64,000 nucleotides of DNA, taken from Escherichia phage HEMP5. Made by a program: the position numbers and the translations under genes. This document shows positions 3,561 through 56,293 of the stretch, in pieces; the first letter of the stretch is position 1, and every line of letters starts with the position of its first letter. A model generated the notes under the pieces. That model saw only the letters and a list, made by a program, of their open reading frames with translations, had not been told where the DNA came from and did not search any database. Location of the stretch: sequence record OR424388.1; one strand, given 5' to 3'.

Positions 3561-3620
3561 GATAATCTCCTCGGTAGTTTATGTTTATATAATATCTCAA
3601 TTTCCAACAAAAGTAAATAG

Positions 3621-4062: not shown

Positions 4063-4120
4063 AACAATCTCCTCATTTAACCAACAAGACTACTATACCA
4101 TAGTCTTGTCAGCTTGTAAA

Positions 4121-5548
4121 CTAAAATTTTAATTCATTCGCCAAAGCATCTAACTGAGCTCGAGTGGATTCATTTCTTTGATAGCGATTCTGTTCAGCCT
4201 GAATCTGTTGTGAACCTGCTACTTCACTCACTTCGGTTGGAGTAGAATCTTGTTCAATTTCTACCCATTTTTGATTTCCTTTTTGAACACCCATCAAAAA
4301 CTTATTCCACTTATTCTTATCACCATATCGTGATTTGATTTGCTTAATAAGTTGTTGTTCAGCAGCTGCCAACTCCTCGGTTTCAATGACCGCAAGCATA
4401 AAATCAGCTGTCGCTGGAAGACCAGCAGATTCTGCGATATCACTCATGTTAACATCGGAAGAGTCCCAAGCTTGTTTACCGACCTGTGCTGCAGTCCAAA
4501 GAACAGTTTCGGTTTCAACAGCAAGAGCACGCAATTCCTCTGCAATAGCTTTAACAGTTGTGTAACTATTTTCTGAATAAACTCTAATGCGGCAAGATTT
4601 ACAAATACCTAGATAGTCGACAATAATGATTGTTGGAACAAAATTCTTCTTGAGCTTCAATTCATTCAAGAGAGACCTGAATGTGTTAGCATCTGCCCCA
4701 CCAGTGGGATACTGTTTAACGATTAAACGACCAAGAGTAGATTTCTCACGCCATTTTTCCATTTTTCCTTTATACTCAGCGTAAGAAATATGCCCATCAT
4801 CAATGTCATCAAGAGAAACATCAAGCATATTAGCATCAATACGCTTAGCACAGACTTCTTCTGCCATTTCCATGGAAATGTAAAGAACATTATGTCCGAG
4901 CTGCAAATAATCTGCTGCCAATGAACAAAGTCCTAATGATTTACCAACGTTAACGCCAGCCATTAAAACGTTCAGTGTCCCAGTCTCAGCTCCGCCTTTA
5001 GTAATTTTGTTTAGAATTCTGAGTTTAAATGGAACCTTACGAGCTTTATTCATATAAGATAGCCAACGTGCTTCGTAGTCATCCATCCAATCATGACCAA
5101 CGTAACTATCAAATGAAATTGATAATGCTTGGCGCATGATGTCAGGAATAGCACCAACGTCCGGCATTTTCTTATTTCGTTTTTCCGGAGGAAGCTCAGC
5201 ATTAGTTTGAATTTCGATTATTTTAGACGTAGCATTAAACATCGCCCTTTGCTGAACATATTTTTCTGTTTCTTTTACTAACCAGCTGTGGTCTTCCGGA
5301 GAATCAGCTAGTTTTGAAATAAGTGTTTTTACACCAGAATATTCTGTTTCAGTAAATGAACTATTTTCTAATGCAACATTTAACGCATTAATAGATGGAA
5401 CGCTATGGTACTCGTTAACATGAGATTTAATTAATTTGAACGTATTTTTAGCTGGACCACTTTCAAAATATTCTGAATCCATATATGGCCAAACTTTTGA
5501 AAAATAAGCTTGATCAAATATGAGATGAGAAAGAATAATTTCTACCAC
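4121..5548 (-). CDS. 41: replicative DNA helicase gp41 (DnaB-like)
   Basis: 475 aa; Walker A GVNVGKS; initiates at GTG 5 nt after AAGGAG; start overlaps the gene 40 stop. Confidence 0.95.
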   Translation of the reverse strand: MVEIILSHLIFDQAYFSKVWPYMDSEYFESGPAKNTFKLIKSHVNEYHSVPSINALNVALENSSFTETEYSGVKTLISKLADSPEDHSWLVKETEKYVQQRAMFNATSKIIEIQTNAELPPEKRNKKMPDVGAIPDIMRQALSISFDSYVGHDWMDDYEARWLSYMNKARKVPFKLRILNKITKGGAETGTLNVLMAGVNVGKSLGLCSLAADYLQLGHNVLYISMEMAEEVCAKRIDANMLDVSLDDIDDGHISYAEYKGKMEKWREKSTLGRLIVKQYPTGGADANTFRSLLNELKLKKNFVPTIIIVDYLGICKSCRIRVYSENSYTTVKAIAEELRALAVETETVLWTAAQVGKQAWDSSDVNMSDIAESAGLPATADFMLAVIETEELAAAEQQLIKQIKSRYGDKNKWNKFLMGVQKGNQKWVEIEQDSTPTEVSEVAGSQQIQAEQNRYQRNESTRAQLDALANELKF

Positions 5549-9536: not shown

Positions 9537-9773
9537 TCAAATGCAAGTAGTAATTACTCCAGTAGTGCTTATGCAGGTATTACCCATTTGCACACCTAAA
9601 GATCCATTTGTATTCGCATGAAGATTATCATCAATTTTAACTGATATTTTACCATTAGTGTGAATAACAGTGCTAGATTCAATCACAGGTTGAGTATCAT
9701 TTTCAACACTAACAAATGGAACTGCTGCTAATGCAACTAAACAAACTGCTAAGCATCCCATAACAATTTTCAT
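9537..9773 (-). CDS. small secreted/membrane protein
   Basis: 78 aa from internal ATG with GGAG RBS (MKIVMGCLAVCLVALAAV...); the longer six-frame ORF start lies inside the upstream promoter. Confidence 0.6.
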   Translation of the reverse strand: MKIVMGCLAVCLVALAAVPFVSVENDTQPVIESSTVIHTNGKISVKIDDNLHANTNGSLGVQMGNTCISTTGVITTCI

Positions 9774-9810
9774 TTTATTCTCCAAATCCGTATCAGTAGT
9801 TGATAGTTGT

Positions 9811-9840
9811 ATAGTACCATGGAAGAACATTCTTGTAAAC
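9811..9840 (-). promoter_or_regulatory. T4-early-type promoter (-35 GTTTAC, -10 TACTAT), one copy of a repeated promoter-leader cassette
   Basis: About 45 bp nearly identical to cassettes at 34905-34959, 36345-36399 and 50970-51038. Confidence 0.55.
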
Positions 9841-9922
9841 AGTTTTGTGAAAATTTTTTAGTGAATTCTAAATGTCCAGAATCATCTGTTTTTCATAAGT
9901 ATAGATTTATATTACTTGTATG

Positions 9923-9943
9923 AAAAAGGGACCCGGAGGTCCC
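9923..9943 (-). terminator. terminator hairpin after gene 43 (GGGACC-UCCG-GGUCCC plus U-run)
   Basis: 6-bp GC stem with tetraloop followed by U5 on the minus-strand RNA. Confidence 0.55.
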
Positions 9944-9956
9944 TAGATTTATTCTA

Positions 9957-34901: not shown

Positions 34902-34929
34902 TTTCTGTTCCTCCGTAGTTGATAGTTGT

Positions 34930-34959
34930 ATAGTACCACAGAGGAACAGTCTTGTAAAC
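34930..34959 (-). promoter_or_regulatory. T4-early-type promoter (repeated promoter-leader cassette copy)
   Basis: -35 GTTTAC and -10 TACTAT with 18-nt spacer on the minus strand. Confidence 0.55.
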
Positions 34960-34961
34960 CA

Positions 34962-35264
34962 CTAAAAGAAACTTCTTTCACAATTTTTTCCACTGAACCA
35001 TGCGCTTACCGCTTTCTTAGTCTCAGGAGCAGTGTTATCCATAAACCATTCAAAGGCAGCCTTTTTATGATTCTGGAGGGCTTCTCGGGCTTTAATCTGC
35101 TCACGGTCTATTAACACTAACATATGAGCCTTTCTTGTCACCATGGGCTTCTTATGATTTTTTGAATACTCCCAGTCATTTGTCCATCGCATTGTCGTTG
35201 CGAACTTAAATACTGCTTCTTTAATTTTAGTTTCGTAAATTTCACGAGCCTTTGAGTATAACAT
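34962..35264 (-). CDS. hypothetical protein
   Basis: 100 aa from ATG with GGAGG RBS (alternative starts 1-4 codons upstream). Confidence 0.6.
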   Translation of the reverse strand: MLYSKAREIYETKIKEAVFKFATTMRWTNDWEYSKNHKKPMVTRKAHMLVLIDREQIKAREALQNHKKAAFEWFMDNTAPETKKAVSAWFSGKNCERSFF

Positions 35265-35365: not shown

Positions 35366-36334
35366 TTATTTCAGAAGAGTAACCTCAGCAATTTCTTCCC
35401 AACCGTTTTTGTCGGTCATAATAAAGTCAGCAAGATAAAGAGCAGTACGCAGTGAAACATTGCGTAAACGATTAACATTAACTTTCATCCATGATAATGC
35501 TTTATAAGTTTCTTCATCAGAAAGACCGCGCTTTTGCATCATGTCAGTTGAAAGAATAACATCTTCAACCCTGACCATAATTTCTTCATTAGTGTGAACA
35601 CCCAAATCCAAATAAACCGAGCGGGACACTAATGCTTGTAAATGTGGAGCAAGTTTAGTACCACGGTCTAATTCGCGGTCAATGTCAACGTTTGTGATAA
35701 AAACAATCGTTCCTTTAAATTCAAACTCACGCTCAATGCCTTTTTCTTCTAAGTAAGAAGACGCAGTGCTCCAGCAGACTTTACGGGTCTCTCCGGTGTC
35801 CAGAGCAGCTTTCAGAAGATTAAGAATGTCCATATCAGAGAAAACATCCACATCATCAATCAAAAGGACAGAATTCTCTTCACGATTATTCCAAAGCTGT
35901 TCATAAAGACCAATACCAGAGATTTTACCATTAATGCTTTTATATTCAATGTATCCAATATCATTTGCTTTATTTAAAGCTTTATCTAAAGAATACGTTT
36001 TACCAATGCCTGCCGCACCAGAGATAATTAATGAACGAATGTTTCCGTTAATAATACCATTCGTCATCATTCCCATAACATTAAATCTTTTATTAATGCG
36101 GGTTTTCATATCTTCATACGATTCTTTAACTTCTTCAACTTTTACACCATCATATGAAATGTCTGATTTGTAAACCCAAACACCGCGACGTTTACCGTCA
36201 ATTTCAACAAAAACTTTACCATCTCCTTGTGCATCTACTGGAGCATTATCTGGGAACCATTCGCCTAAGAGCTCAAAAGTTCCAGAGATTTCTTTACCGA
36301 AGTAGATACCCTTATTGATAGTTACAGTTTTCAT
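35366..36334 (-). CDS. P-loop ATPase (Walker A GAAGIGKT, Walker B VLLIDDVD)
   Basis: 322 aa from ATG with GGAG RBS (MKTVTINKGIYF...); the six-frame ORF N-terminal extension is promoter read-through. Confidence 0.8.
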   Translation of the reverse strand: MKTVTINKGIYFGKEISGTFELLGEWFPDNAPVDAQGDGKVFVEIDGKRRGVWVYKSDISYDGVKVEEVKESYEDMKTRINKRFNVMGMMTNGIINGNIRSLIISGAAGIGKTYSLDKALNKANDIGYIEYKSINGKISGIGLYEQLWNNREENSVLLIDDVDVFSDMDILNLLKAALDTGETRKVCWSTASSYLEEKGIEREFEFKGTIVFITNVDIDRELDRGTKLAPHLQALVSRSVYLDLGVHTNEEIMVRVEDVILSTDMMQKRGLSDEETYKALSWMKVNVNRLRNVSLRTALYLADFIMTDKNGWEEIAEVTLLK

Positions 36335-36369
36335 TTTATTCTCCAAATCCGTATCAGTTGATAGTTGTA

Positions 36370-36399
36370 TAGTACCATAAAGCTTTATGCTTGTAAACA
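36370..36399 (-). promoter_or_regulatory. T4-early-type promoter (repeated promoter-leader cassette copy)
   Basis: -35 GTTTAC, -10 TACTAT; leader nearly identical to the 9781-9830 copy. Confidence 0.55.
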
Positions 36400-36423
36400 A
36401 TTTTGTGAAAAAATTTTTGAAAT

Positions 36424-36447
36424 AAAAAAGGGAGCCCGAAGGCTCCC
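36424..36447 (-). terminator. terminator hairpin GGGAGCC-UUCG-GGCUCCC plus U6
   Basis: 7-bp stem with UUCG loop immediately 3' of the nucleotidyltransferase gene stop; with the adjacent promoter forms a PeSL-like cassette. Confidence 0.6.
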
Positions 36448-36449
36448 TA

Positions 36450-37463
36450 TCATTTATAATAACTTCGGTGGTTTTCAAGATAAACCTGTTCGAGGAAATT
36501 ATTCCAAAAGCTCATATCTACTGTTTTAGGCATACCATTCTTAGAAGCTTCAGTAGATGCTGCTTCTACTTGATCGACCACATCTTCCAAAAACTCTTGA
36601 ACTGTTTTAAATGGATGTTTACCCAACTTCACGTCGAGAATAAATGGAGCATCTTGGAGTGGATAAACCAAGTCACCAGTTTTGTAAATTTCCAATAGTT
36701 GAAGTCCACCACGACAAGCATGACTCAGAGCTTTCCAGTCAATACCTTCATTGGCTTCGGCCTTACGAGCACGTTCACCATATTCAGCATCTAATTTGTT
36801 CAGTGACTGCTTAAGCTCAATAAGAGAAAGCGTTGTCTGATATTTACGACCCAACACTGTGTAGAACGTTTGTGGACCTGTTTTCTCATGATTATGGAAC
36901 ACCCATTCACAGAATTCGTTTTCTGGAAGACGATGCTTAATATCTTCAACTTTAGTGCGACGCTGCTTAATAGAACCATCTTCTTGGTAATCAACCCATT
37001 GCTCAGGGATTTGATTAACTACTTTCAATACATCACGTAATGCAGCCAAACGAGAACCCTTGACACCGTATTTAGAAGCTTGCTTGCGGACATATCCTAA
37101 ATATGATTTCATGTTAGTCGTATAAAAACGAGAACGGTTGTCTTGAATAAACTTCCACACATCAGGCAAATCAGATTTAACCACTAGTTCAGGTGGAGTG
37201 TGAAGCATATCCAACGCTACAGTTTCACCATCTGCCGCTAATTTAAAGAAATACTTAAGACTGTATAGTTCATGGTCAATATCATCTTTAGTGTTTTTAG
37301 ATGATGTGTTGTTAGTGTTTTTACTCATGTGCTCTTTGACATTTCCGATAAGAATATCGCGAGCAGGAGGAACAAAGATTTCTTTAAAATCTACATCAGA
37401 TTCTGGGGTAGAAGTTCCATAAAGATGACTACCAAAATAGCTTTTCATTACTGTTTTCATCAT
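36450..37463 (-). CDS. Pol-beta-superfamily nucleotidyltransferase
   Basis: 337 aa; GS-x9-DxD motif (GSHLYGTSTPESDVDF) and a downstream acidic residue (ALDMLH); ATGA overlap with the upstream gene. Confidence 0.8.
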   Translation of the reverse strand: MMKTVMKSYFGSHLYGTSTPESDVDFKEIFVPPARDILIGNVKEHMSKNTNNTSSKNTKDDIDHELYSLKYFFKLAADGETVALDMLHTPPELVVKSDLPDVWKFIQDNRSRFYTTNMKSYLGYVRKQASKYGVKGSRLAALRDVLKVVNQIPEQWVDYQEDGSIKQRRTKVEDIKHRLPENEFCEWVFHNHEKTGPQTFYTVLGRKYQTTLSLIELKQSLNKLDAEYGERARKAEANEGIDWKALSHACRGGLQLLEIYKTGDLVYPLQDAPFILDVKLGKHPFKTVQEFLEDVVDQVEAASTEASKNGMPKTVDMSFWNNFLEQVYLENHRSYYK

Positions 37464-37921
37464 TCAGCCTTATATTCAATAACAGGACATACTTTAGCTT
37501 TACGCGCTTTTAAAAATTCGACGATAATAGATTTCTTGGGTTGAATAGGAGGTAAACCTTTATACGCCCTATCAATATTTTCTACATGTAAAGCATAATC
37601 CTTTTTCCATTTATAATCTTTATATTTTTCATGCAGTTGTGCAGGAATAACAAATGAACCAATAATAAGTAAAATAAGCAAAATGGCAAGTATAAATGCT
37701 GATGGAATAAGAGTCCATAAACTACCAAAAATAAGCCATTTCTGTATGATTTCTGCACAGATAATAGTTAGACCTGCGAGTATAGTACATCCGAAAAAAG
37801 AAACGAAAAATGTAGGGATAACAATAGACCAAAAGTATGCACACAGTGTCTTAGGTCGTTTCCATTCGTCGTTAAACAGTTTGAATAATTTATAGTGCCA
37901 AGAGTTTTCATTAATAATCAT
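37460..37921 (-). CDS. membrane protein
   Basis: 153 aa; 3-4 predicted transmembrane helices; AGGA RBS. Confidence 0.7.
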   Translation of the reverse strand: MIINENSWHYKLFKLFNDEWKRPKTLCAYFWSIVIPTFFVSFFGCTILAGLTIICAEIIQKWLIFGSLWTLIPSAFILAILLILLIIGSFVIPAQLHEKYKDYKWKKDYALHVENIDRAYKGLPPIQPKKSIIVEFLKARKAKVCPVIEYKAE

Positions 37922-38985: not shown

Positions 38986-39149
38986 ATTGATTCTCTTCGA
39001 CTCACCCACAATTACATACTCCTTTGAATAATATCAATAATGTTGTTCACCAGATTATAAGTAAACATTGGATAATTATATTGAATCATCACATACACAA
39101 CAAACAAAACTTTCATTCTCTTCTCCTTGGCAGTTGACAAGATTACTAT

Positions 39150-39350
39150 ATCATAACCTTGCCAACTTGTAAACCATTAAATGACGTTTTCAATAAAATT
39201 CTGAAGCTTTGTGTGAGCATCAACCATGATTTTCATTTCTTCCTTTGCGAAAGCTGTACCTCTTTCCCTAGCAGAATACTCATAGTCAGAAACTGCATTA
39301 GCATATTCTTCAATTAGCTTCATTAAAAACATCTGCTTTTCAGTTTTCAT
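39150..39350 (-). CDS. possible small protein (about 57-66 aa)
   Basis: Hand-translated ORF (MKTEKQMFLMKLIEEYANAVSDYEYS...) filling a 330-bp gap; not in the six-frame track, so my reading may contain an error. Confidence 0.3.
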
Positions 39351-39928: not shown

Positions 39929-39956
39929 GATGTTCTCCTCTTTATCCGATGGTTGT

Positions 39957-39986
39957 ATAGTATCACAGCTCAAATTGAAAGTAAAC
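39957..39986 (-). promoter_or_regulatory. T4-early-type promoter (-35 GTTTAC, -10 TACTAT)
   Basis: Minus strand; adjacent to the terminator hairpin at 39997-40018 (PeSL-like cassette). Confidence 0.55.
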
Positions 39987-39996
39987 TGGTAAAATG

Positions 39997-40018
39997 AAAA
40001 AAGTCTCCCGAAGGAGAC
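39997..40018 (-). terminator. terminator hairpin GUCUCC-UUCG-GGAGAC plus U6
   Basis: Immediately 3' of the rI.-1 stop on the minus RNA. Confidence 0.6.
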
Positions 40019-40023
40019 TAATG

Positions 40024-44122: not shown

Positions 44123-44149
44123 GTTATTCTCCTCTTAACTGATAGAAAA

Positions 44150-44179
44150 ATTATACCACAGTCAAGAGGAAAAGTAAAC
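44150..44179 (-). promoter_or_regulatory. T4-early-type promoter upstream of regB (-35 GTTTAC, 18-nt spacer, -10 TATAAT)
   Basis: Minus strand; consensus elements about 25 nt upstream of the regB ATG. Confidence 0.55.
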
Positions 44180-46356: not shown

Positions 46357-46935
46357 TTAATTACCACGGGCTGCATTAGCAACGGCATAAGCGTACTGAA
46401 CATTAGCGTCCTTAAACGTACCTTTAGAGGTATCTATTTCTGCCTTAAAGCCGCCTTTAGCCATAACATCGGCAAATTCTTTACGGAAAGCCATTGCATC
46501 AAGACCTTTCCATGATGATTTGTGCTTAGCGAATTCAAGACCAGCGTAGTTGACAGCCTTAGCTAATTTGTTATCAATAACCCATTTACCAGCTTTAGGC
46601 ACAAACACCGGGCCTTTCTGTTTAGAGAACAGTTTTAAATTCCAGCGACGAAGATCACTGTCGGCTTTAACAAAAGCTGCGTCTAAGTTACTAGCAACAA
46701 CATCCTGAATATGGCCAAATTTAAGCCCATCAACTTCAATATTTAGATCGGTACGCCAGCGAAGTCCTTCCCAAGCGAAGGCTTTAAAATCAGAAGCTTT
46801 TGTAGCTAAGTATCGTTCAATAGGGGCTGTTTTAGGGTCAAAGCCGTTTCCACCACGATAAGTCCACTCGTCCTTATTAATGCCTTGAGCTTTTCCTGCA
46901 AAGGCCTCGGCGATAAATTCTTTGTATGTTTTCAT
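46357..46935 (-). CDS. ipIII: internal protein III (capsid-targeted, CTS MKTYKEFIAE)
   Basis: 192 aa; N-terminal CTS; size matches T4 IPIII. Confidence 0.85.
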   Translation of the reverse strand: MKTYKEFIAEAFAGKAQGINKDEWTYRGGNGFDPKTAPIERYLATKASDFKAFAWEGLRWRTDLNIEVDGLKFGHIQDVVASNLDAAFVKADSDLRRWNLKLFSKQKGPVFVPKAGKWVIDNKLAKAVNYAGLEFAKHKSSWKGLDAMAFRKEFADVMAKGGFKAEIDTSKGTFKDANVQYAYAVANAARGN

Positions 46936-46965
46936 TTTTGTTTCCTTGTTTGTTTTGATAGAGTA

Positions 46966-46995
46966 ATTATACTATATTAATACTTAAGCGTAAAC
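46966..46995 (-). promoter_or_regulatory. T4-early-type promoter for ipIII (-35 GTTTAC, 18-nt spacer, -10 TATAAT)
   Basis: Minus strand; about 30 nt upstream of the ipIII ATG. Confidence 0.55.
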
Positions 46996-47060: not shown

Positions 47061-47162
47061 CTACTTTAGGACTGCACCAAATACGCGTGGTAATTCACGA
47101 TACTCAGCCATAAGATGTTGGTCGGTCAGTTCAGAAACAAGTGTTAAATTGATACGAGTCAT
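47061..47162 (-). pseudogene. denV: denV (endonuclease V, pyrimidine dimer glycosylase) remnant: first 30 codons then premature stop
   Basis: [31 protein letters not shown] matches the recalled T4 DenV N-terminus, then LK-stop; the remaining roughly 100 codons are absent. Confidence 0.6.
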
Positions 47163-47189
47163 AATTTCCTCCAAGTAGTTGATGAATGT

Positions 47190-47219
47190 ATAGTATCAAA
47201 ACCCTTGGAGGAAGTAAAC
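47190..47219 (-). promoter_or_regulatory. T4-early-type promoter (-35 GTTTAC, -10 TACTAT) upstream of the denV remnant
   Basis: Minus strand; 18-nt spacer. Confidence 0.5.
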
Positions 47220-48462: not shown

Positions 48463-48466
<4 letters not shown>

Positions 48467-48825
48467 TTTAATTTCCTGCAATCACTCACAAACTCTTTCA
48501 TTGATTCATTTTCAATATAAGACATGTAGCTATTATATTCCTTTAATTGTATTTTGTAATCCTTTTTTCTTTGCCAATTTATTTTAAAATTATCATAATG
48601 AAAATATAAAATGATACCAAAGAATGAAAACAATGAAATAATTTTAGTATAACAAAGCTCACTCCAAACTTCTGTTATATTTACTGTGCCGTCGATGTTT
48701 AAAATAAGACAGTCAATTAACAATCCAAAAAGACTACCCGCAAGAGCTGCAGCCAACGCCACAGCAAAAATTAAAAATGACTCAGGAAACGAATATTTGA
48801 CTTTATTTAATTTTGGCTTTTGCAT
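48463..48825 (-). CDS. membrane protein
   Basis: 120 aa; two hydrophobic helices; AAGGAA RBS. Confidence 0.65.
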
Positions 48826-50633: not shown

Positions 50634-50701
50634 TTATTTCTCCGTTTCTGTATTTGTTTTGATAAGTCTATAATAACACCGTCCTTGGTGTTTGTACACA
50701 A

Positions 50702-50965: not shown

Positions 50966-51008
50966 TTTATTCTCCAAGTTGTTTTCTGTATCAGTAGTTG
51001 ATAGTTGT

Positions 51009-51038
51009 ATAGTACCATGGAAGAACGGGGATGTAAAC
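51009..51038 (-). promoter_or_regulatory. T4-early-type promoter (repeated promoter-leader cassette copy)
   Basis: -35 GTTTAC, -10 TACTAT, 18-nt spacer. Confidence 0.55.
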
Positions 51039-51172
51039 CGTTTTGTGAAAAATTTTTTAAAAAGTTTTGGGGGAATTCTAGGGCAGGGAGGGGCAATTAA
51101 AGGATAGGATAATATATTATAAAGGATAGAAACTAAATGATGCCTAGAGAGGCCCAGAAAGGTCTAGATGCC

Positions 51173-51199
51173 AAAAAGCCCCAACCTTTCGGAAGGGGC
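51173..51199 (-). terminator. rho-independent terminator at the distal end of the tRNA/stable RNA transcription unit
   Basis: GCCCC...GGGGC stem with an inner CC-UUUC-GG hairpin, followed by U5 on the minus RNA. Confidence 0.55.
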
Positions 51200-51516: not shown

Positions 51517-51591
51517 TGGTATCCCGCCCTGGGATCGAACCAGGACCGCAAACTTAGAAGGATCGTATGCTATCCATTACACCAGCGGGAC
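51517..51591 (-). tRNA. tRNA-Arg (anticodon UCU), CCA encoded
   Basis: Hand-folded cloverleaf: 7-bp acceptor stem, T-arm CCUGG-UUCGAUC-CCAGG, anticodon loop CUUCUAA. Confidence 0.8.
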
Positions 51592-52213
51592 GTAATTTAT
51601 TTAAAAGACAAGACAAATCGGAAATCTCATCTTTTTCTAAAACTACCAAATTTTCTAAAGCTTTCCATTTACAAAGATCTCTATCTCTTTTATATCCTTT
51701 GACTTCTATATAAAAATCATAAGTGGGTAAATAAAAATCAGGAAAATAGAGATGTTCTGAACCTTCCCATTCGTAAGGAATTGGCTTTATTTTATTAGTA
51801 TATTTGATATTGTGTTCTTTTAAAAACTTAGCAACTTTTAATTCCCAGGTCCCTTTAAATTTAAACCCGTCAAACTCATATGTTTTTACTCGACCAGAAA
51901 CATTAGAAGCAGAATATGAATCAGGATTATCAAGAACAGCTTGCCGCATTCTTTTAGAATGTGCTTCTTTGCGTTCATTAGACCATACATATCCAGTATT
52001 GGCTTTTCTAAGTTTTTCTCTAGTTTTATCAGAGACTTTTATTTCTTTACCTAGTTCTTTGGCTTTGGTAAATTGATTACTACCTTTAAGACCATAACGA
52101 GGGTTATTAGGGCCGCTCATATCTAATCTATTTGGGTTAGATTTGCACCGTTTTTCATGCTGCTTTAGTGAATTTAAATTTTTACATTCTTTAGAACAAT
52201 ATTGACAAAGCAT
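51554..52213 (-). CDS. putative nuclease with N-terminal C2HC zinc finger and C-terminal PD-(D/E)xK-like motif; possible free-standing homing-type endonuclease
   Basis: 219 aa from ATG with GGAG RBS; CQYCSKECKNLNSLKQHEKRC and HLYFPDFYLP...DFYIEVKGYK; the last about 12 codons overlap the 5' end of tRNA-Arg; no GIY-YIG motif. Confidence 0.65.
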   Translation of the reverse strand: MLCQYCSKECKNLNSLKQHEKRCKSNPNRLDMSGPNNPRYGLKGSNQFTKAKELGKEIKVSDKTREKLRKANTGYVWSNERKEAHSKRMRQAVLDNPDSYSASNVSGRVKTYEFDGFKFKGTWELKVAKFLKEHNIKYTNKIKPIPYEWEGSEHLYFPDFYLPTYDFYIEVKGYKRDRDLCKWKALENLVVLEKDEISDLSCLLNKLRPAGVMDSIRSF

Positions 52214-52282
52214 AATTTTCTCCATGAATTTTATATAGATATTTATTCATGGAGAAGTTGACTGCTCTACCTAATCAAAATA

Positions 52283-52788: not shown

Positions 52789-53397
52789 TTATTTATTACG
52801 TGAAAAAGACTGTTCTATCAATTCTGGACACTTTCGTTCTATCCATTTTCTAGCTTTTTGTGGGCTTATACCTATTATTTTAGCAGCTTTACTAACCCAT
52901 CCAAATTTAGAATAATCGATTTTAACTAATTCTTCGTAAATTTCATCAGTTAAAATCTTTTCATTAATATTTACCAGTAAATGATATAATTTATTATCAT
53001 TAGCAATTTTAATGAATCTTTTATAGTTTCCGCCTTTACTTAAACCTAATGAAGTAATTGCAGATGATATAGTAGCCGAATTTAATAGTGCGTTTAAAAT
53101 TTCTTCATCACTAACATTATAACGCTTTCTATTATTTTTAATATTTTTACCAGCAAAAGTATCAGTTTGCGAATGGCAATTTGGACATAATAATCTTAAA
53201 TTTGATTTAAGATGATTTTTGTTATTTCCATCAATATGGTCTAATTGTAGAACAATATGCTTATTTTGCCATTTTGAAATTTTACAAATTGCGCACTCAT
53301 ATGGAAAAATATTTTCTTTTATTATTTTGTCTTTCAGCTTTCCTGTACTAAAATTTGGATGTTTTCCTTCAAAAATTTCAGCTAATTTAGTATCCAT
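52789..53397 (-). CDS. HNH-family endonuclease (free-standing homing-endonuclease-like)
   Basis: 202 aa from ATG (the six-frame ORF begins at an upstream TTG); HNH motif HLDHIDGNNKNHLKSNLRLLCPNCH; stop abuts the tRNA-Leu 5' end. Confidence 0.8.
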   Translation of the reverse strand: MDTKLAEIFEGKHPNFSTGKLKDKIIKENIFPYECAICKISKWQNKHIVLQLDHIDGNNKNHLKSNLRLLCPNCHSQTDTFAGKNIKNNRKRYNVSDEEILNALLNSATISSAITSLGLSKGGNYKRFIKIANDNKLYHLLVNINEKILTDEIYEELVKIDYSKFGWVSKAAKIIGISPQKARKWIERKCPELIEQSFSRNK

Positions 53398-53496: not shown

Positions 53497-54012
53497 TTAA
53501 AGCAAATTAAACATTTTAACGGTAGGCAAAACAATTTCTTCTTCTATATAAGAGTATTTAACACTCTCAACTACACGCAAAAAATCATAATCATAATACT
53601 CAGAAGCATTACCTAAAATATTAATAAGTCCTTCAAGCACTTTATTACCATTCACAAAGAATAAGTCAAATACACGTTCTTCATCTTCTTCAGATTTATT
53701 ACCAAGATCAACTTCTATGCGAAAGACCTTTTTAATGAATTCTGGATAAAGCTGGTCTGAGAACAGTCCTTCAACTAAGTATTCATAAATAAAAAGAGAT
53801 TGCTCGCTGAACAAACCATTACCACAATAGCGCTCAATTTTAGTACTAGAATATCTGCTTTTAAACTTCTTTAAAAGATACTGAAATTGTAAGATTTCAT
53901 GCTCTTCTACGCCAAACAGTGTTTTGGTTTTATAGTTGTCACCATCATTTTCCCAGGTAGTGACATCAATTACGTAGCCCTGCGGAATTGTAGTACCTAA
54001 ACAAATATTCAT
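53497..54012 (-). CDS. hypothetical protein
   Basis: 171 aa; ATG start. Confidence 0.65.
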   Translation of the reverse strand: MNICLGTTIPQGYVIDVTTWENDGDNYKTKTLFGVEEHEILQFQYLLKKFKSRYSSTKIERYCGNGLFSEQSLFIYEYLVEGLFSDQLYPEFIKKVFRIEVDLGNKSEEDEERVFDLFFVNGNKVLEGLINILGNASEYYDYDFLRVVESVKYSYIEEEIVLPTVKMFNLL

Positions 54013-54895: not shown

Positions 54896-54923
54896 TTTAT
54901 TCTCCTCAGTAGTTGATAGGGTA

Positions 54924-54953
54924 ATAGTATCACTACCCCATCTAAAAGTAAAT
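54924..54953 (-). promoter_or_regulatory. T4-early-type promoter (-35 ATTTAC variant, -10 TACTAT)
   Basis: Minus strand; 18-nt spacer. Confidence 0.45.
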
Positions 54954-55187: not shown

Positions 55188-55224
55188 TTTAGTTTCCATT
55201 CGATTGTTTTGTTTTGATAGGGTA

Positions 55225-55254
55225 ATAGTATCACAACTAAAACCCTATGTAAAC
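55225..55254 (-). promoter_or_regulatory. T4-early-type promoter (-35 GTTTAC, -10 TACTAT)
   Basis: Minus strand upstream of the IPI-position gene. Confidence 0.55.
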
Positions 55255-55266
55255 AACTTTGTGAAA

Positions 55267-55524
55267 TTATTTTAAATCTTCTAATCGTTTCTTCATCTTA
55301 GAACCATTTTTAGCAATTTCTCCTGCATCGGAGCATAATGCTAAAAGTGCTTTAACTTTAGTTTGGTCTCCTTTAAAAGATGAAGGATCGACTGCAGCAG
55401 CAAGTTCTTTAATACGAGAGAAAAGACGCTCAGCTTCAGCTAAAGCCATTCCAAGCTTTACTTCCATACCGTGAGAAGATTCAGTGATAGTAGTTTTTGT
55501 AGCAAACTCTTTGAAAGTTTTCAT
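55267..55524 (-). CDS. internal protein, paralog of IPII (CTS-like MKTFKEFATK)
   Basis: 85 aa; clear similarity to the IPII-like gene at 47222-47503 (LAEAERLFSRIKELAA... vs LVEAESLLARISELAS...). Confidence 0.7.
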   Translation of the reverse strand: MKTFKEFATKTTITESSHGMEVKLGMALAEAERLFSRIKELAAAVDPSSFKGDQTKVKALLALCSDAGEIAKNGSKMKKRLEDLK

Positions 55525-55554
55525 TTTATTTTCCTAATTAATTTTGATGAGATA

Positions 55555-55584
55555 ATAGTATCACTATCTCATCAGCATGTAAAC
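55555..55584 (-). promoter_or_regulatory. T4-early-type promoter (-35 GTTTAC, -10 TACTAT)
   Basis: Minus strand; 45-bp block nearly identical to the 55225-55275 copy. Confidence 0.55.
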
Positions 55585-55596
55585 AACTTTGTGAAA

Positions 55597-56293
<697 letters not shown>

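Follow-up and report, generated by a model that had tools for sequence, protein, structure and literature searches.

In Escherichia phage HEMP5, a T4-like phage, the repeated promoter-leader blocks are very probably early promoters of the host-sigma-70 type with the 5′ leaders that follow them, and secondarily occasional substrates for recombination. We analysed a stretch of 64,000 nucleotides of this phage (sequence record OR424388.1), hereafter the window, in which a preliminary description had noticed recurring promoter-leader cassettes and terminator-promoter modules and had proposed that they supply homology for the shuffling of accessory genes. To judge from the sequence, the primary role of the cassettes is regulatory, and their extended identity is best read mainly as functional constraint on orthologous promoters. 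Cassette exchange is real at particular hot slots; in the panel of relatives compared here, it neither dominates gene-content variation nor stands out statistically as a source of it.

Results

Sequence identity and gene order place the window in a Tequatrovirus (T4-like) genome, of which it covers the part from soc to gene 6. A piece of about 3 kb around the cassette at 9781-9943 matches Escherichia phage Paracelsus and Yersinia phages PYps32T and PYps47T at 100% identity, and hundreds of further Tequatrovirus genomes at about 98%; a 25-kb piece shares 99.4% identity with PYps32T. Comparison with T4 gives the gene order soc/mrh.2, 56, 61, 41, uvsX, 42, imm, 43, 45, 46, 47, 55, nrdD, nrdC, tk, regB, e, the tRNA cluster, ipI and then genes 5 and 6. 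Every gene up to about 58.5 kb lies on the minus strand and, therefore, all the cassette elements are read on the minus strand, as are all features whose coordinates are given below. The order in which the preliminary description had placed them, terminator before promoter, also implies a minus-strand reading. Searching the window against Rfam at the gathering threshold returned seven tRNAs only, with no match at the cassettes.

Exact matches to GTTTAC-N18-TAnnnT number 17 in the window, where 0.99 would be expected; they all lie on the minus strand and include every claimed copy. Adding the one-mismatch sites that lie just 5′ of an SD-ATG gives about 19 early promoters in the 58-kb early region, of which the named copies are therefore a subset. 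A generic sigma-70 scan did not discriminate (92 sites versus 84 expected), so that the T4-specific pattern was needed. The joint consensus of the approximately 19 promoters reads tttt.a.a.A.t.GTTTACat...tgTGgTAttATa.a..tATcAa.Ta...aggagaa. Within it, 17 of 19 promoters carry TGGTACTAT, TGATACTAT or TGGTATAAT, that is, a TGn extended −10 plus TAnnnT with a 17-nt spacer relative to TTTACA. The UP element AAAAA(A/T)TTTTCACAAAA is found in three family-1 and both family-2 copies; the nrdC.8 copy and the terminator-adjacent modules show it less clearly. These promoters are located 5′ of, and co-oriented with, imm.1, nrdC.8, nrdC.10, e.8, regB, dmd, mrh.2 and the internal-protein (IP) genes. Consensus lists of T4 early promoters are reportedly to be found in Liebig & Rueger 1989, Wilkens & Rueger 1996 and Miller et al. 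2003. T4 early promoters have GTTTAC at −36 to −31 and an A-rich stretch at −40 to −44 (PMC1524935), and they combine UP, −35, TGn and −10 elements, the UP element being a defining part (PMC2988021). The HEMP5 cassettes resemble these classical promoters in GTTTAC, UP element, TGn, −10, further conserved positions and orthologous loci; nothing essential differs, and HEMP5 adds an ORF between the gene 43-proximal promoter and imm.1. Elements of this kind (UP element, −35 GTTTAC(A/T), 17-nt spacer and TGn-extended −10 TA(C/T)(T/A)AT) would recruit E. coli RNA polymerase immediately post infection.

All four family-1 cassettes have orthologs at the same loci in T4, T2, Paracelsus, PYps32T, LF73P1, SH-1 and TH09. 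The T4 orthologs lie at about 27,080, 53,943, 55,384 and 70,696, upstream of imm.1, nrdC.8, nrdC.10 and e.8, respectively. Two further paralogs occur in the T4 ndd region (T4 record X75802), where the depositor annotated a promoter with −35 GTTTACA and −10 TACTAT, the same hexamers. The T4 RefSeq annotation, inspected for promoter features, holds none, and a literature search for T4 transcription-start-site maps returned nothing relevant.

The first repeat family had been described as nearly identical copies of a promoter and leader. It is indeed present at four sites, on the minus strand, with −35 to −10 cores at 9811-9840, 34930-34959, 36369-36398 and 51009-51038, but near identity is too strong in one respect: the 16-nt spacer between the −35 and TGG is copy-specific. 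The 27-base pattern GTTTAC-N16-GGTACTATACAACTATCAACT matches the four copies without mismatch and was found in none of 100 dinucleotide shuffles. Ungapped identity of the other three copies to the one at 9787-9859 is 74%, 71% and 89% over 73 nt, and leader plus start codon at 9763-9797 and 36324-36358 agree at 97% over 35 nt. Over 80 anchored nt, identity within the family averages 70% (range 64-84%), as compared with a background of 47% ± 8% among the 19 early promoters of the window and 47% between family 1 and the other early promoters. In reverse complement, the layout consists of an A/T-rich block AAAAA(A/T)TTTTCACAAAAC(T/G), GTTTAC, the copy-specific spacer, TGGTACTAT, ACAACTATCAACT(ACT), GATAC(G/A)G and TTGGAGAATAAAATG.

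Copy 1, after gene 43, comprises the UP element AAAAAATTTTCACAAAACT (9841-9866, common to the 9840, 36398 and 51038 copies and to a T4 ndd-region promoter), the core, with −35 GTTTAC, 18 nt and TGG-TACTAT, and a leader ACAACTATCAACTACTGATACGGATTTGGAGAATAAA (9774-9810) followed by the ATG at 9771-9773. The nrdC.8 promoter, copy 2 (34902-34985, leader 34902-34929), has the −35, extended −10 and +1 block common to the family, with a shorter, different leader and a UP element that is not clear. Copy 3, the nrdC.10 promoter (36335-36448), runs from a terminator (36429-36448) through the UP element (36399-36423) to a leader at 36335-36368, and copy 4, the e.8 promoter (50966-51064), has its UP element at 51039-51064 and its leader at 50966-51008. 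The second family is confirmed: 55212-55282 and 55542-55612 are 82% identical over 71 nt. Its two members, at 55188-55282 (promoter 55225-55254) and 55525-55612 (promoter 55555-55584), each with a spacer/+1 hairpin, would drive two IP-like ORFs that start with MKTFKEF. Thus, it does not hold that the copies share only the promoter hexamers, the finding that had been named as speaking against extended repeats: beyond the hexamers, identity takes in the UP element and extended −10 as well as the +1 region and leader.

What could such extended identity be for? The leader GGAGAATAAAA, which holds the SD GGAG, is present in three of the four family-1 cassettes (9840, 36398 and 51038) and in the 54953 cassette. 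It matches the strong-site consensus for cleavage by RegB/S1, GG*AGRAYARAA (PMC3014915), and is thus a candidate site by sequence match. The 9840, 36398 and 51038 leaders have no significant RNA structure (z +0.6, +1.3 and −0.2). The RegB/S1 endoribonuclease would cut the family-1 leader, so that the message would be made at once and inactivated a few minutes later. Because the leader fits such a site, the extended identity would find a functional explanation in strong initiation followed by RegB-mediated inactivation.

A UUCG hairpin terminator directly before a promoter had been claimed in several places, and folding bears this out, with a T-run after each hairpin, at 211-232 (−15.1 kcal/mol, z −4.5), 36429-36448 (−17.3 kcal/mol, z −3.5) and 40002-40019 (−10.8 kcal/mol, z −3.6). 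The first belongs to a terminator-promoter module at 141-232 with its promoter at 167-196 and a leader to the mrh.2 ATG (138-140), the second to family-1 copy 3, and the third to a paralog of the first module at 39929-40019 (promoter 39957-39986). The terminator after gene 43 (9922-9944), which lies in the very range given in the preliminary description, has a UCCG loop, not UUCG: its hairpin GGGACC-UCCG-GGUCCC (9927-9944, −13.9 kcal/mol, z about −2.7) is followed by a U-run and kept in 7/7 panel genomes. A G+C-rich hairpin with an immediate U-run, as predicted here by folding, is what defines a Rho-independent terminator.

A different kind of hairpin is embedded in eight cassettes (4121, 34959, 39174, 44179, 47219, 54953, 55254 and 55584). 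In each, the promoter spacer supplies the 5′ arm and pairs with the +1 region or the SD as 3′ arm, at −15 to −23 kcal/mol and z of −2.8 to −5.5; in five of the eight, it is the +1 region, not the SD, that lies in the 3′ arm. In the nrdC.8 cassette, a 15-bp hairpin (34905-34949, −23.2 kcal/mol, z −5.3) pairs the spacer with the SD GGAGG. The spacer of the regB early promoter (44123-44179) pairs the regB SD AAGAGGAG (−22.4 kcal/mol, z −5.5), and that of the early promoter of a truncated denV (47163-47219) pairs the SD CTTGGAGGAA. Hairpins of 15 bp span spacer, −10 and +1 in the early promoter upstream of dmd (4063-4121, −18.9 kcal/mol, z −3.9) and in another at 39117-39174 (−19.0 kcal/mol, z −3.8). 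An ATTTAC variant at 54896-54953, the first of three tandem early promoters in the IP locus, also has an embedded hairpin. When the 62 nt before start codons were scanned, z ≤ −2.5 was reached by 8/16 promoter-driven genes versus 8/99 other genes (Fisher P=1.6e-4); the latter include the control genes e and 49, whose known SD-sequestering hairpins the scan picked up. Energies of −15 kcal/mol or below occur in 8/19 real cassettes as compared with 10/342 chimeras whose 5′ and 3′ halves come from different promoters. Since chimeras rarely reach this value, the complementarity of the spacer is copy-specific. In addition, the 55584 stem shows A-U to G-U to G-C covariation among orthologs. In the embedded-hairpin class, the upstream stop codon abuts the −35, which leaves no room for a separate terminator. 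Either the upstream UUCG-loop terminator or, in about eight cassettes, the spacer/+1-SD hairpin would insulate the gene from upstream transcription or translation.

The slot after gene 43 illustrates how genes come and go beside a constant cassette. Terminator, UP element, promoter and leader are kept in all genomes compared, while the slot itself has three alleles: the ORF of the window, a T4-like deletion and a T2-like replacement. The window's ORF (9537-9773, from cassette to imm.1) encodes 78 aa with a signal/lipobox-like N-terminus, has no Pfam match and is present in 317/518 records; in the others the slot shows a T4-like deletion or, in 31 of them, a T2-like replacement. In T4 the ORF is absent and the deletion joint ATGAAAAT runs from start codon to start codon, not from promoter to promoter. 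T2 has a different ORF from leader position 9793 on, and its gene 43 cassette is a chimera whose spacer and leader are identical to the nrdC.8-type cassette. The T2 replacement ORF, sought at other loci, was always at this one locus in the 31 records, so there is no sign of inter-locus ORF mobility.

At the nrdC.11/nrdC.10 junction we found at least four independent gene modules, each bounded by cassette repeats. T2 carries a 568-bp ORF between two terminator-UP-promoter modules, with a 51-bp direct repeat of 36382-36432 composed of the terminator tail, the UP element and the −35. In TH09 a different ORF of 275 bp is inserted after the leader CTATCAA, with a second promoter behind it; in G9062 a two-ORF module is joined to the leader at the same point as in TH09, with a hairpin-type promoter after it; and ACG-C40 holds both the T2 and the G9062 module. 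Insertions of about +260, +480, +620 or +1,100 bp occur here in about 19 of 45 evenly sampled records. One of the accessory genes swapped at this junction or in the gene 43 slot is annotated in its RefSeq record as ModB (RNA polymerase ADP-ribosylase); the ORF so annotated has no match in Pfam.

In the IP locus, T4 and SH-1 are without 280 bp between the promoters at 54924 and 55225, with a 21-24-bp overlap GT(T)GTGATACTATTACCCTATCAA at the joint and the 54896-54953 promoter as the left joint of the unit, and the body of the neighbouring internal protein is replaced. The MKTFKEF start of the family-2 ORFs is the capsid-targeting sequence seen in T4 ipI, ipII and ipIII. Elsewhere, replacement breakpoints at 245-247 (T4, SH-1 and LF73P1) adjoin the 167-232 module, a 614-bp insertion in SH-1 adjoins the −35 of the promoter at 3589-3618, and breakpoints adjoin the −35 of 50670-50699 and that of 47190-47219, the latter in five panel genomes. 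Other cassettes are quiet. The nrdC.8 junction is a single intact piece in 498/505 records, the e.8 query is covered in one piece in 511/605 records with no break at the cassette in any sampled or panel genome, and the 39957-40019 module has no breakpoint in the panel. Of the four family-1 sites, only two are plastic.

Cassettes have also traded parts. The gene 43 site of SH-1 has the e.8 type of spacer and the e.8 site of PYps32T the gene 43 type, and promoter P2 of the T4 ndd region is a mosaic: its spacer is of the gene 43 type, its +1 block of family 2 and its SD of the nrdC.8 type. It appears that early-promoter cassettes exchange segments across loci by gene conversion. A cassette match in a 46-kb "phage", considered as a transfer to an unrelated virus, was rejected: the record is a partial Tequatrovirus and the match is the e.8 paralog.

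For a quantitative view, the window was aligned to seven relatives and indel or replacement events of at least 40 bp were collected over positions 1-58,530. The 54 distinct events give 81 breakpoint clusters, of which 14 fall inside cassettes where uniform placement would give 3.5 (P<1e-4). It had been stated that an absence of rearrangement breakpoints from these sites in related genomes would refute the shuffling idea; breakpoints inside the cassettes are thus found. As many as 69 of the 81 clusters lie within 30 bp of some gene junction, and in this seven-genome panel breakpoints are not enriched at promoter junctions (9/18 versus 38/100 other junctions, Fisher P=0.43). Fifteen of the 54 events touch a cassette, four of them at both ends, and 39 touch none. 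Further short direct repeats also delimit indels: a stretch of 30 bp made of gene end, SD and ATG at 48463-48492, a terminator repeat of 25-30 bp at 51168-51197 and ATGAAAA(T) start-codon microhomology of 7-14 bp, which do so equally well, and 21-41 bp at homing-endonuclease insertions.

Discussion

The likeness to promoter-early stem-loops (PeSLs) of T4-type phages (Arbiol et al. 2010, PMC2839356; Comeau et al. 2014, PMC4122927) to which the preliminary description pointed is apt, as the same composite is described in Comeau et al. 2014 (PMC4122927). Both combine a stem-loop and an SD-ATG with a strong early promoter of the sigma-70 kind that has an A/T-rich region upstream, and both occur in many copies of one orientation before non-essential ORFs; PeSLs lie at indel or replacement joints of close relatives, as do HEMP5 cassettes at some sites. 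In HEMP5, promoters are accompanied by a stable stem-loop (three upstream terminators and embedded hairpins in 8/19), about 19 copies stand in the same orientation before non-essential or unknown ORFs in plastic regions, and joints in or next to the element are clear at three to four sites. In the T4/PST pair, the consensus is TTTACW-N17-TAYWAT with the stem-loop just upstream of the promoter (PMC4122927), a pattern matched by the three terminator-promoter modules of HEMP5. In contrast, the stem-loop of about eight HEMP5 cassettes lies across spacer, −10 and +1/SD, which is not the arrangement reported for T4/PST and is that of RB49/phi1, where a stem-loop between or overlapping the −35 and −10 forms the commonest PeSL subclass (PMC2839356). 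HEMP5 also departs from the PeSL model in that the association of breakpoints with cassettes in the panel is no greater than that with other gene junctions.

The IP locus has its own precedent in the polymorphic internal-protein locus of T-even phages (Repoila et al. 1994, as cited in PMC4122927). As that work is cited there, the HEMP5 locus resembles it in its tandem conserved promoter/leader and MKT(F/Y)(K/Q)EF N-terminus, in its variable IP bodies and in units gained, lost and swapped among phages. HEMP5 represents another allele set, with two IP-like ORFs where T4 has ipI.

How far, then, do the cassettes shuffle genes? Stretches of 20-50 nt of identity, in one orientation and between non-essential genes, would permit occasional homologous or short-homology recombination; given that such identity recurs, the cassettes would therefore act as occasional recombination substrates. 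The predicted outcome, namely cassette-bounded gain, loss and swap of small modules together with mosaic cassettes, is the PeSL mechanism of Arbiol, Comeau and Krisch. The claim of gene shuffling stands at nrdC.10/11, the gene 43 slot and the IP unit, and has its limits: of the four family-1 copies, two keep an unvarying structure across about 500 genomes, and in the panel promoter junctions are not preferred over others. Nor do the cassettes bracket small accessory ORFs, as had been proposed: they precede genes instead, and nrdC.10 and nrdC.8 encode 322 and 175 aa.

The embedded hairpins invite a more ambitious reading, which we regard as doubtful though worth stating: that spacer-+1/SD hairpins, in about 8/19 early promoters including regB, are a general insulation device, combined with inter-locus gene conversion of cassette segments. 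In read-through transcripts the hairpin may form and would mask the SD and RegB site, and transcripts from the cassette's own promoter, which would start without the 5′ arm, may be translatable. Alternatively, the hairpin may serve as a 3′ stabiliser or attenuator for the upstream cistron. The scheme has a parallel in the SD-sequestering hairpins of T4 e, soc, 49 and I-TevI (PMC3014915), whose 5′ arm likewise lies upstream of the start site of the proximal promoter and whose 3′ arm covers the SD, so that only transcripts from the proximal promoter would be translatable. In those genes the proximal promoter is late, whereas in the HEMP5 cassettes it is early, and we infer the function here from base pairing. 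A literature search on early-promoter hairpins returned nothing specific, and neither their prevalence nor their copy-specific covariation was found described in T4 proper.

Could the cassettes be purely regulatory, their similarity maintained by purifying selection on very strong promoters and on leaders sensitive to RegB, and indels end there simply because gene boundaries are where promoters lie, with no causal role in shuffling? We consider this unlikely, even though it would accommodate the absence of enrichment over other gene junctions, the two copies that do not vary among about 500 genomes, the attribution of most events to other microhomologies or homing-endonuclease insertions, and spacers that are largely locus-specific and orthologously conserved. 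It is at odds with joints whose 51-bp and 21-24-bp repeats are cassette sequence itself, with the four or more independent module combinations at one junction, each delimited by cassettes, and with chimeric cassettes whose crossover lies inside the promoter. That the cassettes are autonomous mobile elements, either MITE-like or actively transposed PeSL units carrying ORFs to new sites, is very improbable: paralogs do occur at distant loci such as the ndd region, and a 47-nt leader/−10 segment has a 96% match in the 158-kb Salmonella phage STML-198 with no flanking homology reported, but common reliance on host RNA polymerase and RegB accounts equally well for such cross-phage conservation, no terminal inverted repeats, target-site duplications or associated transposase were seen, the four copies hold fixed orthologous positions, and the ORF of the T2 allele keeps to one locus in 31 records. 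The early-promoter reading, with recombination as a secondary and occasional effect, is the one that we retain.

All the essentials of this reading are published (Arbiol 2010; Comeau 2014; Repoila 1994; the T4 promoter literature). Few promoters of bacterial viruses are better characterised than the early ones of T4, and as a discovery the present reading carries little weight. Its value for annotation is that the cassettes fix transcription units and that one gene start is corrected to 9773, not 9830. If the hairpin reading were true, the e/soc/49/I-TevI principle would extend from late to early promoters in T4 proper. For the biology of the group, the analysis identifies the nrdC.10/11 junction and the gene 43 slot as sites of accessory-gene swapping among about 500 sequenced relatives, and the lack of enrichment at promoter junctions cautions on how much genome plasticity the PeSL model explains.

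Hairpins embedded in the early promoters

In eight early promoters, all on the minus strand, the promoter's own spacer pairs with the +1/SD region to form a stable hairpin (z -2.8 to -5.5; 4063-4121, 34905-34949, 39117-39174, 44123-44179, 47163-47219, 54896-54953, 55188-55254 and 55525-55584). These hairpins are copy-specific, being found in 8 of the 19 real cassettes (sigma-70 early promoter plus leader) compared with 10 of 342 chimeras joining the 5' half of one promoter to the 3' half of another. They are also commoner at promoter-driven than at other gene starts (P=1.6e-4), and the SD itself lies within the stem in the nrdC.8, regB and truncated-denV cassettes.

A separate point is where translation begins downstream of the gene 43-proximal promoter, in the variable slot ORF that precedes imm.1; the stretch concerned is 9774-9830. 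Public annotation starts this ORF at 9830, in Paracelsus (bas36_0158) and PYps32T (PYps32T_153) alike. That ATG sits in CCATGG, within the promoter spacer/extended -10, and is 5' of every transcript that this promoter would start. The ATG at 9773, which is preceded by an SD, is the likely start.

The leader/-10 segment of the nrdC.10 cassette has a 47-nt match, at 96% identity, in the 158-kb Salmonella phage STML-198 (NC_027344.1, 89265-89311), with no homology to the nrdC.10 query reported in its flanks. Shared constraint or cassette transfer could account for this match.

Variable gene content

At the nrdC.11/nrdC.10 junction, T2 and ACG-C40 have an accessory ORF, annotated ModB (RNA polymerase ADP-ribosylase; 1039-1524 in ACG-C40 locus L017, about 37264-37833 in the concatenated T2 loci L006 and L013), in a slot bounded by cassettes; the window lacks this ORF. 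R / S-x-S / E-x-E motifs were judged by eye in this ORF, and it gave no Pfam match.

The denV (endonuclease V) fragment at 47064-47162 (minus strand) keeps only the first 33 codons, with 94% identity to T4. An ipIII-like gene with a promoter (46357-46995, minus strand) stands where the remaining denV would be, and no intact denV occurs within the 64-kb window. The gene order is e, ipIII, ipII, denV in T4 and e, denV in Paracelsus.

Two minus-strand ORFs adjoin the tRNA cluster: one of 202 aa (52789-53397), missing in all seven relatives compared, and one of 171 aa (53497-54012), missing in five of them. The former has an HNH match below threshold (E=0.005), an indication that it may be a homing endonuclease. 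Between tRNA-Arg and the main cluster, the ORF at 51554-52225 (minus strand) occupies the position of T4 segB, with which no alignment was possible; it has a weak, below-threshold Phage_endo_I match. ARAGORN called seven tRNAs in the window, compared with eight annotated in T4, and made no call there for the T4-annotated tRNA-Gln and tRNA-Ile.

Other direct repeats also bound indels. The window lacks a 1.2-kb segment, present in 5/7 relatives, at 51168-51197, a site bounded by a terminator-like 25-30-bp repeat (CCCTTCCGAAAGGTTGGGGCTTTTT) and followed 130-160 nt downstream by the e.8 cassette. It likewise lacks a 455-bp ORF, which six of the seven relatives have, at 48463-48492; here the flanking 30-bp direct repeat consists of gene end, SD and ATGA, and this site is a clean case of a promoter-independent indel.
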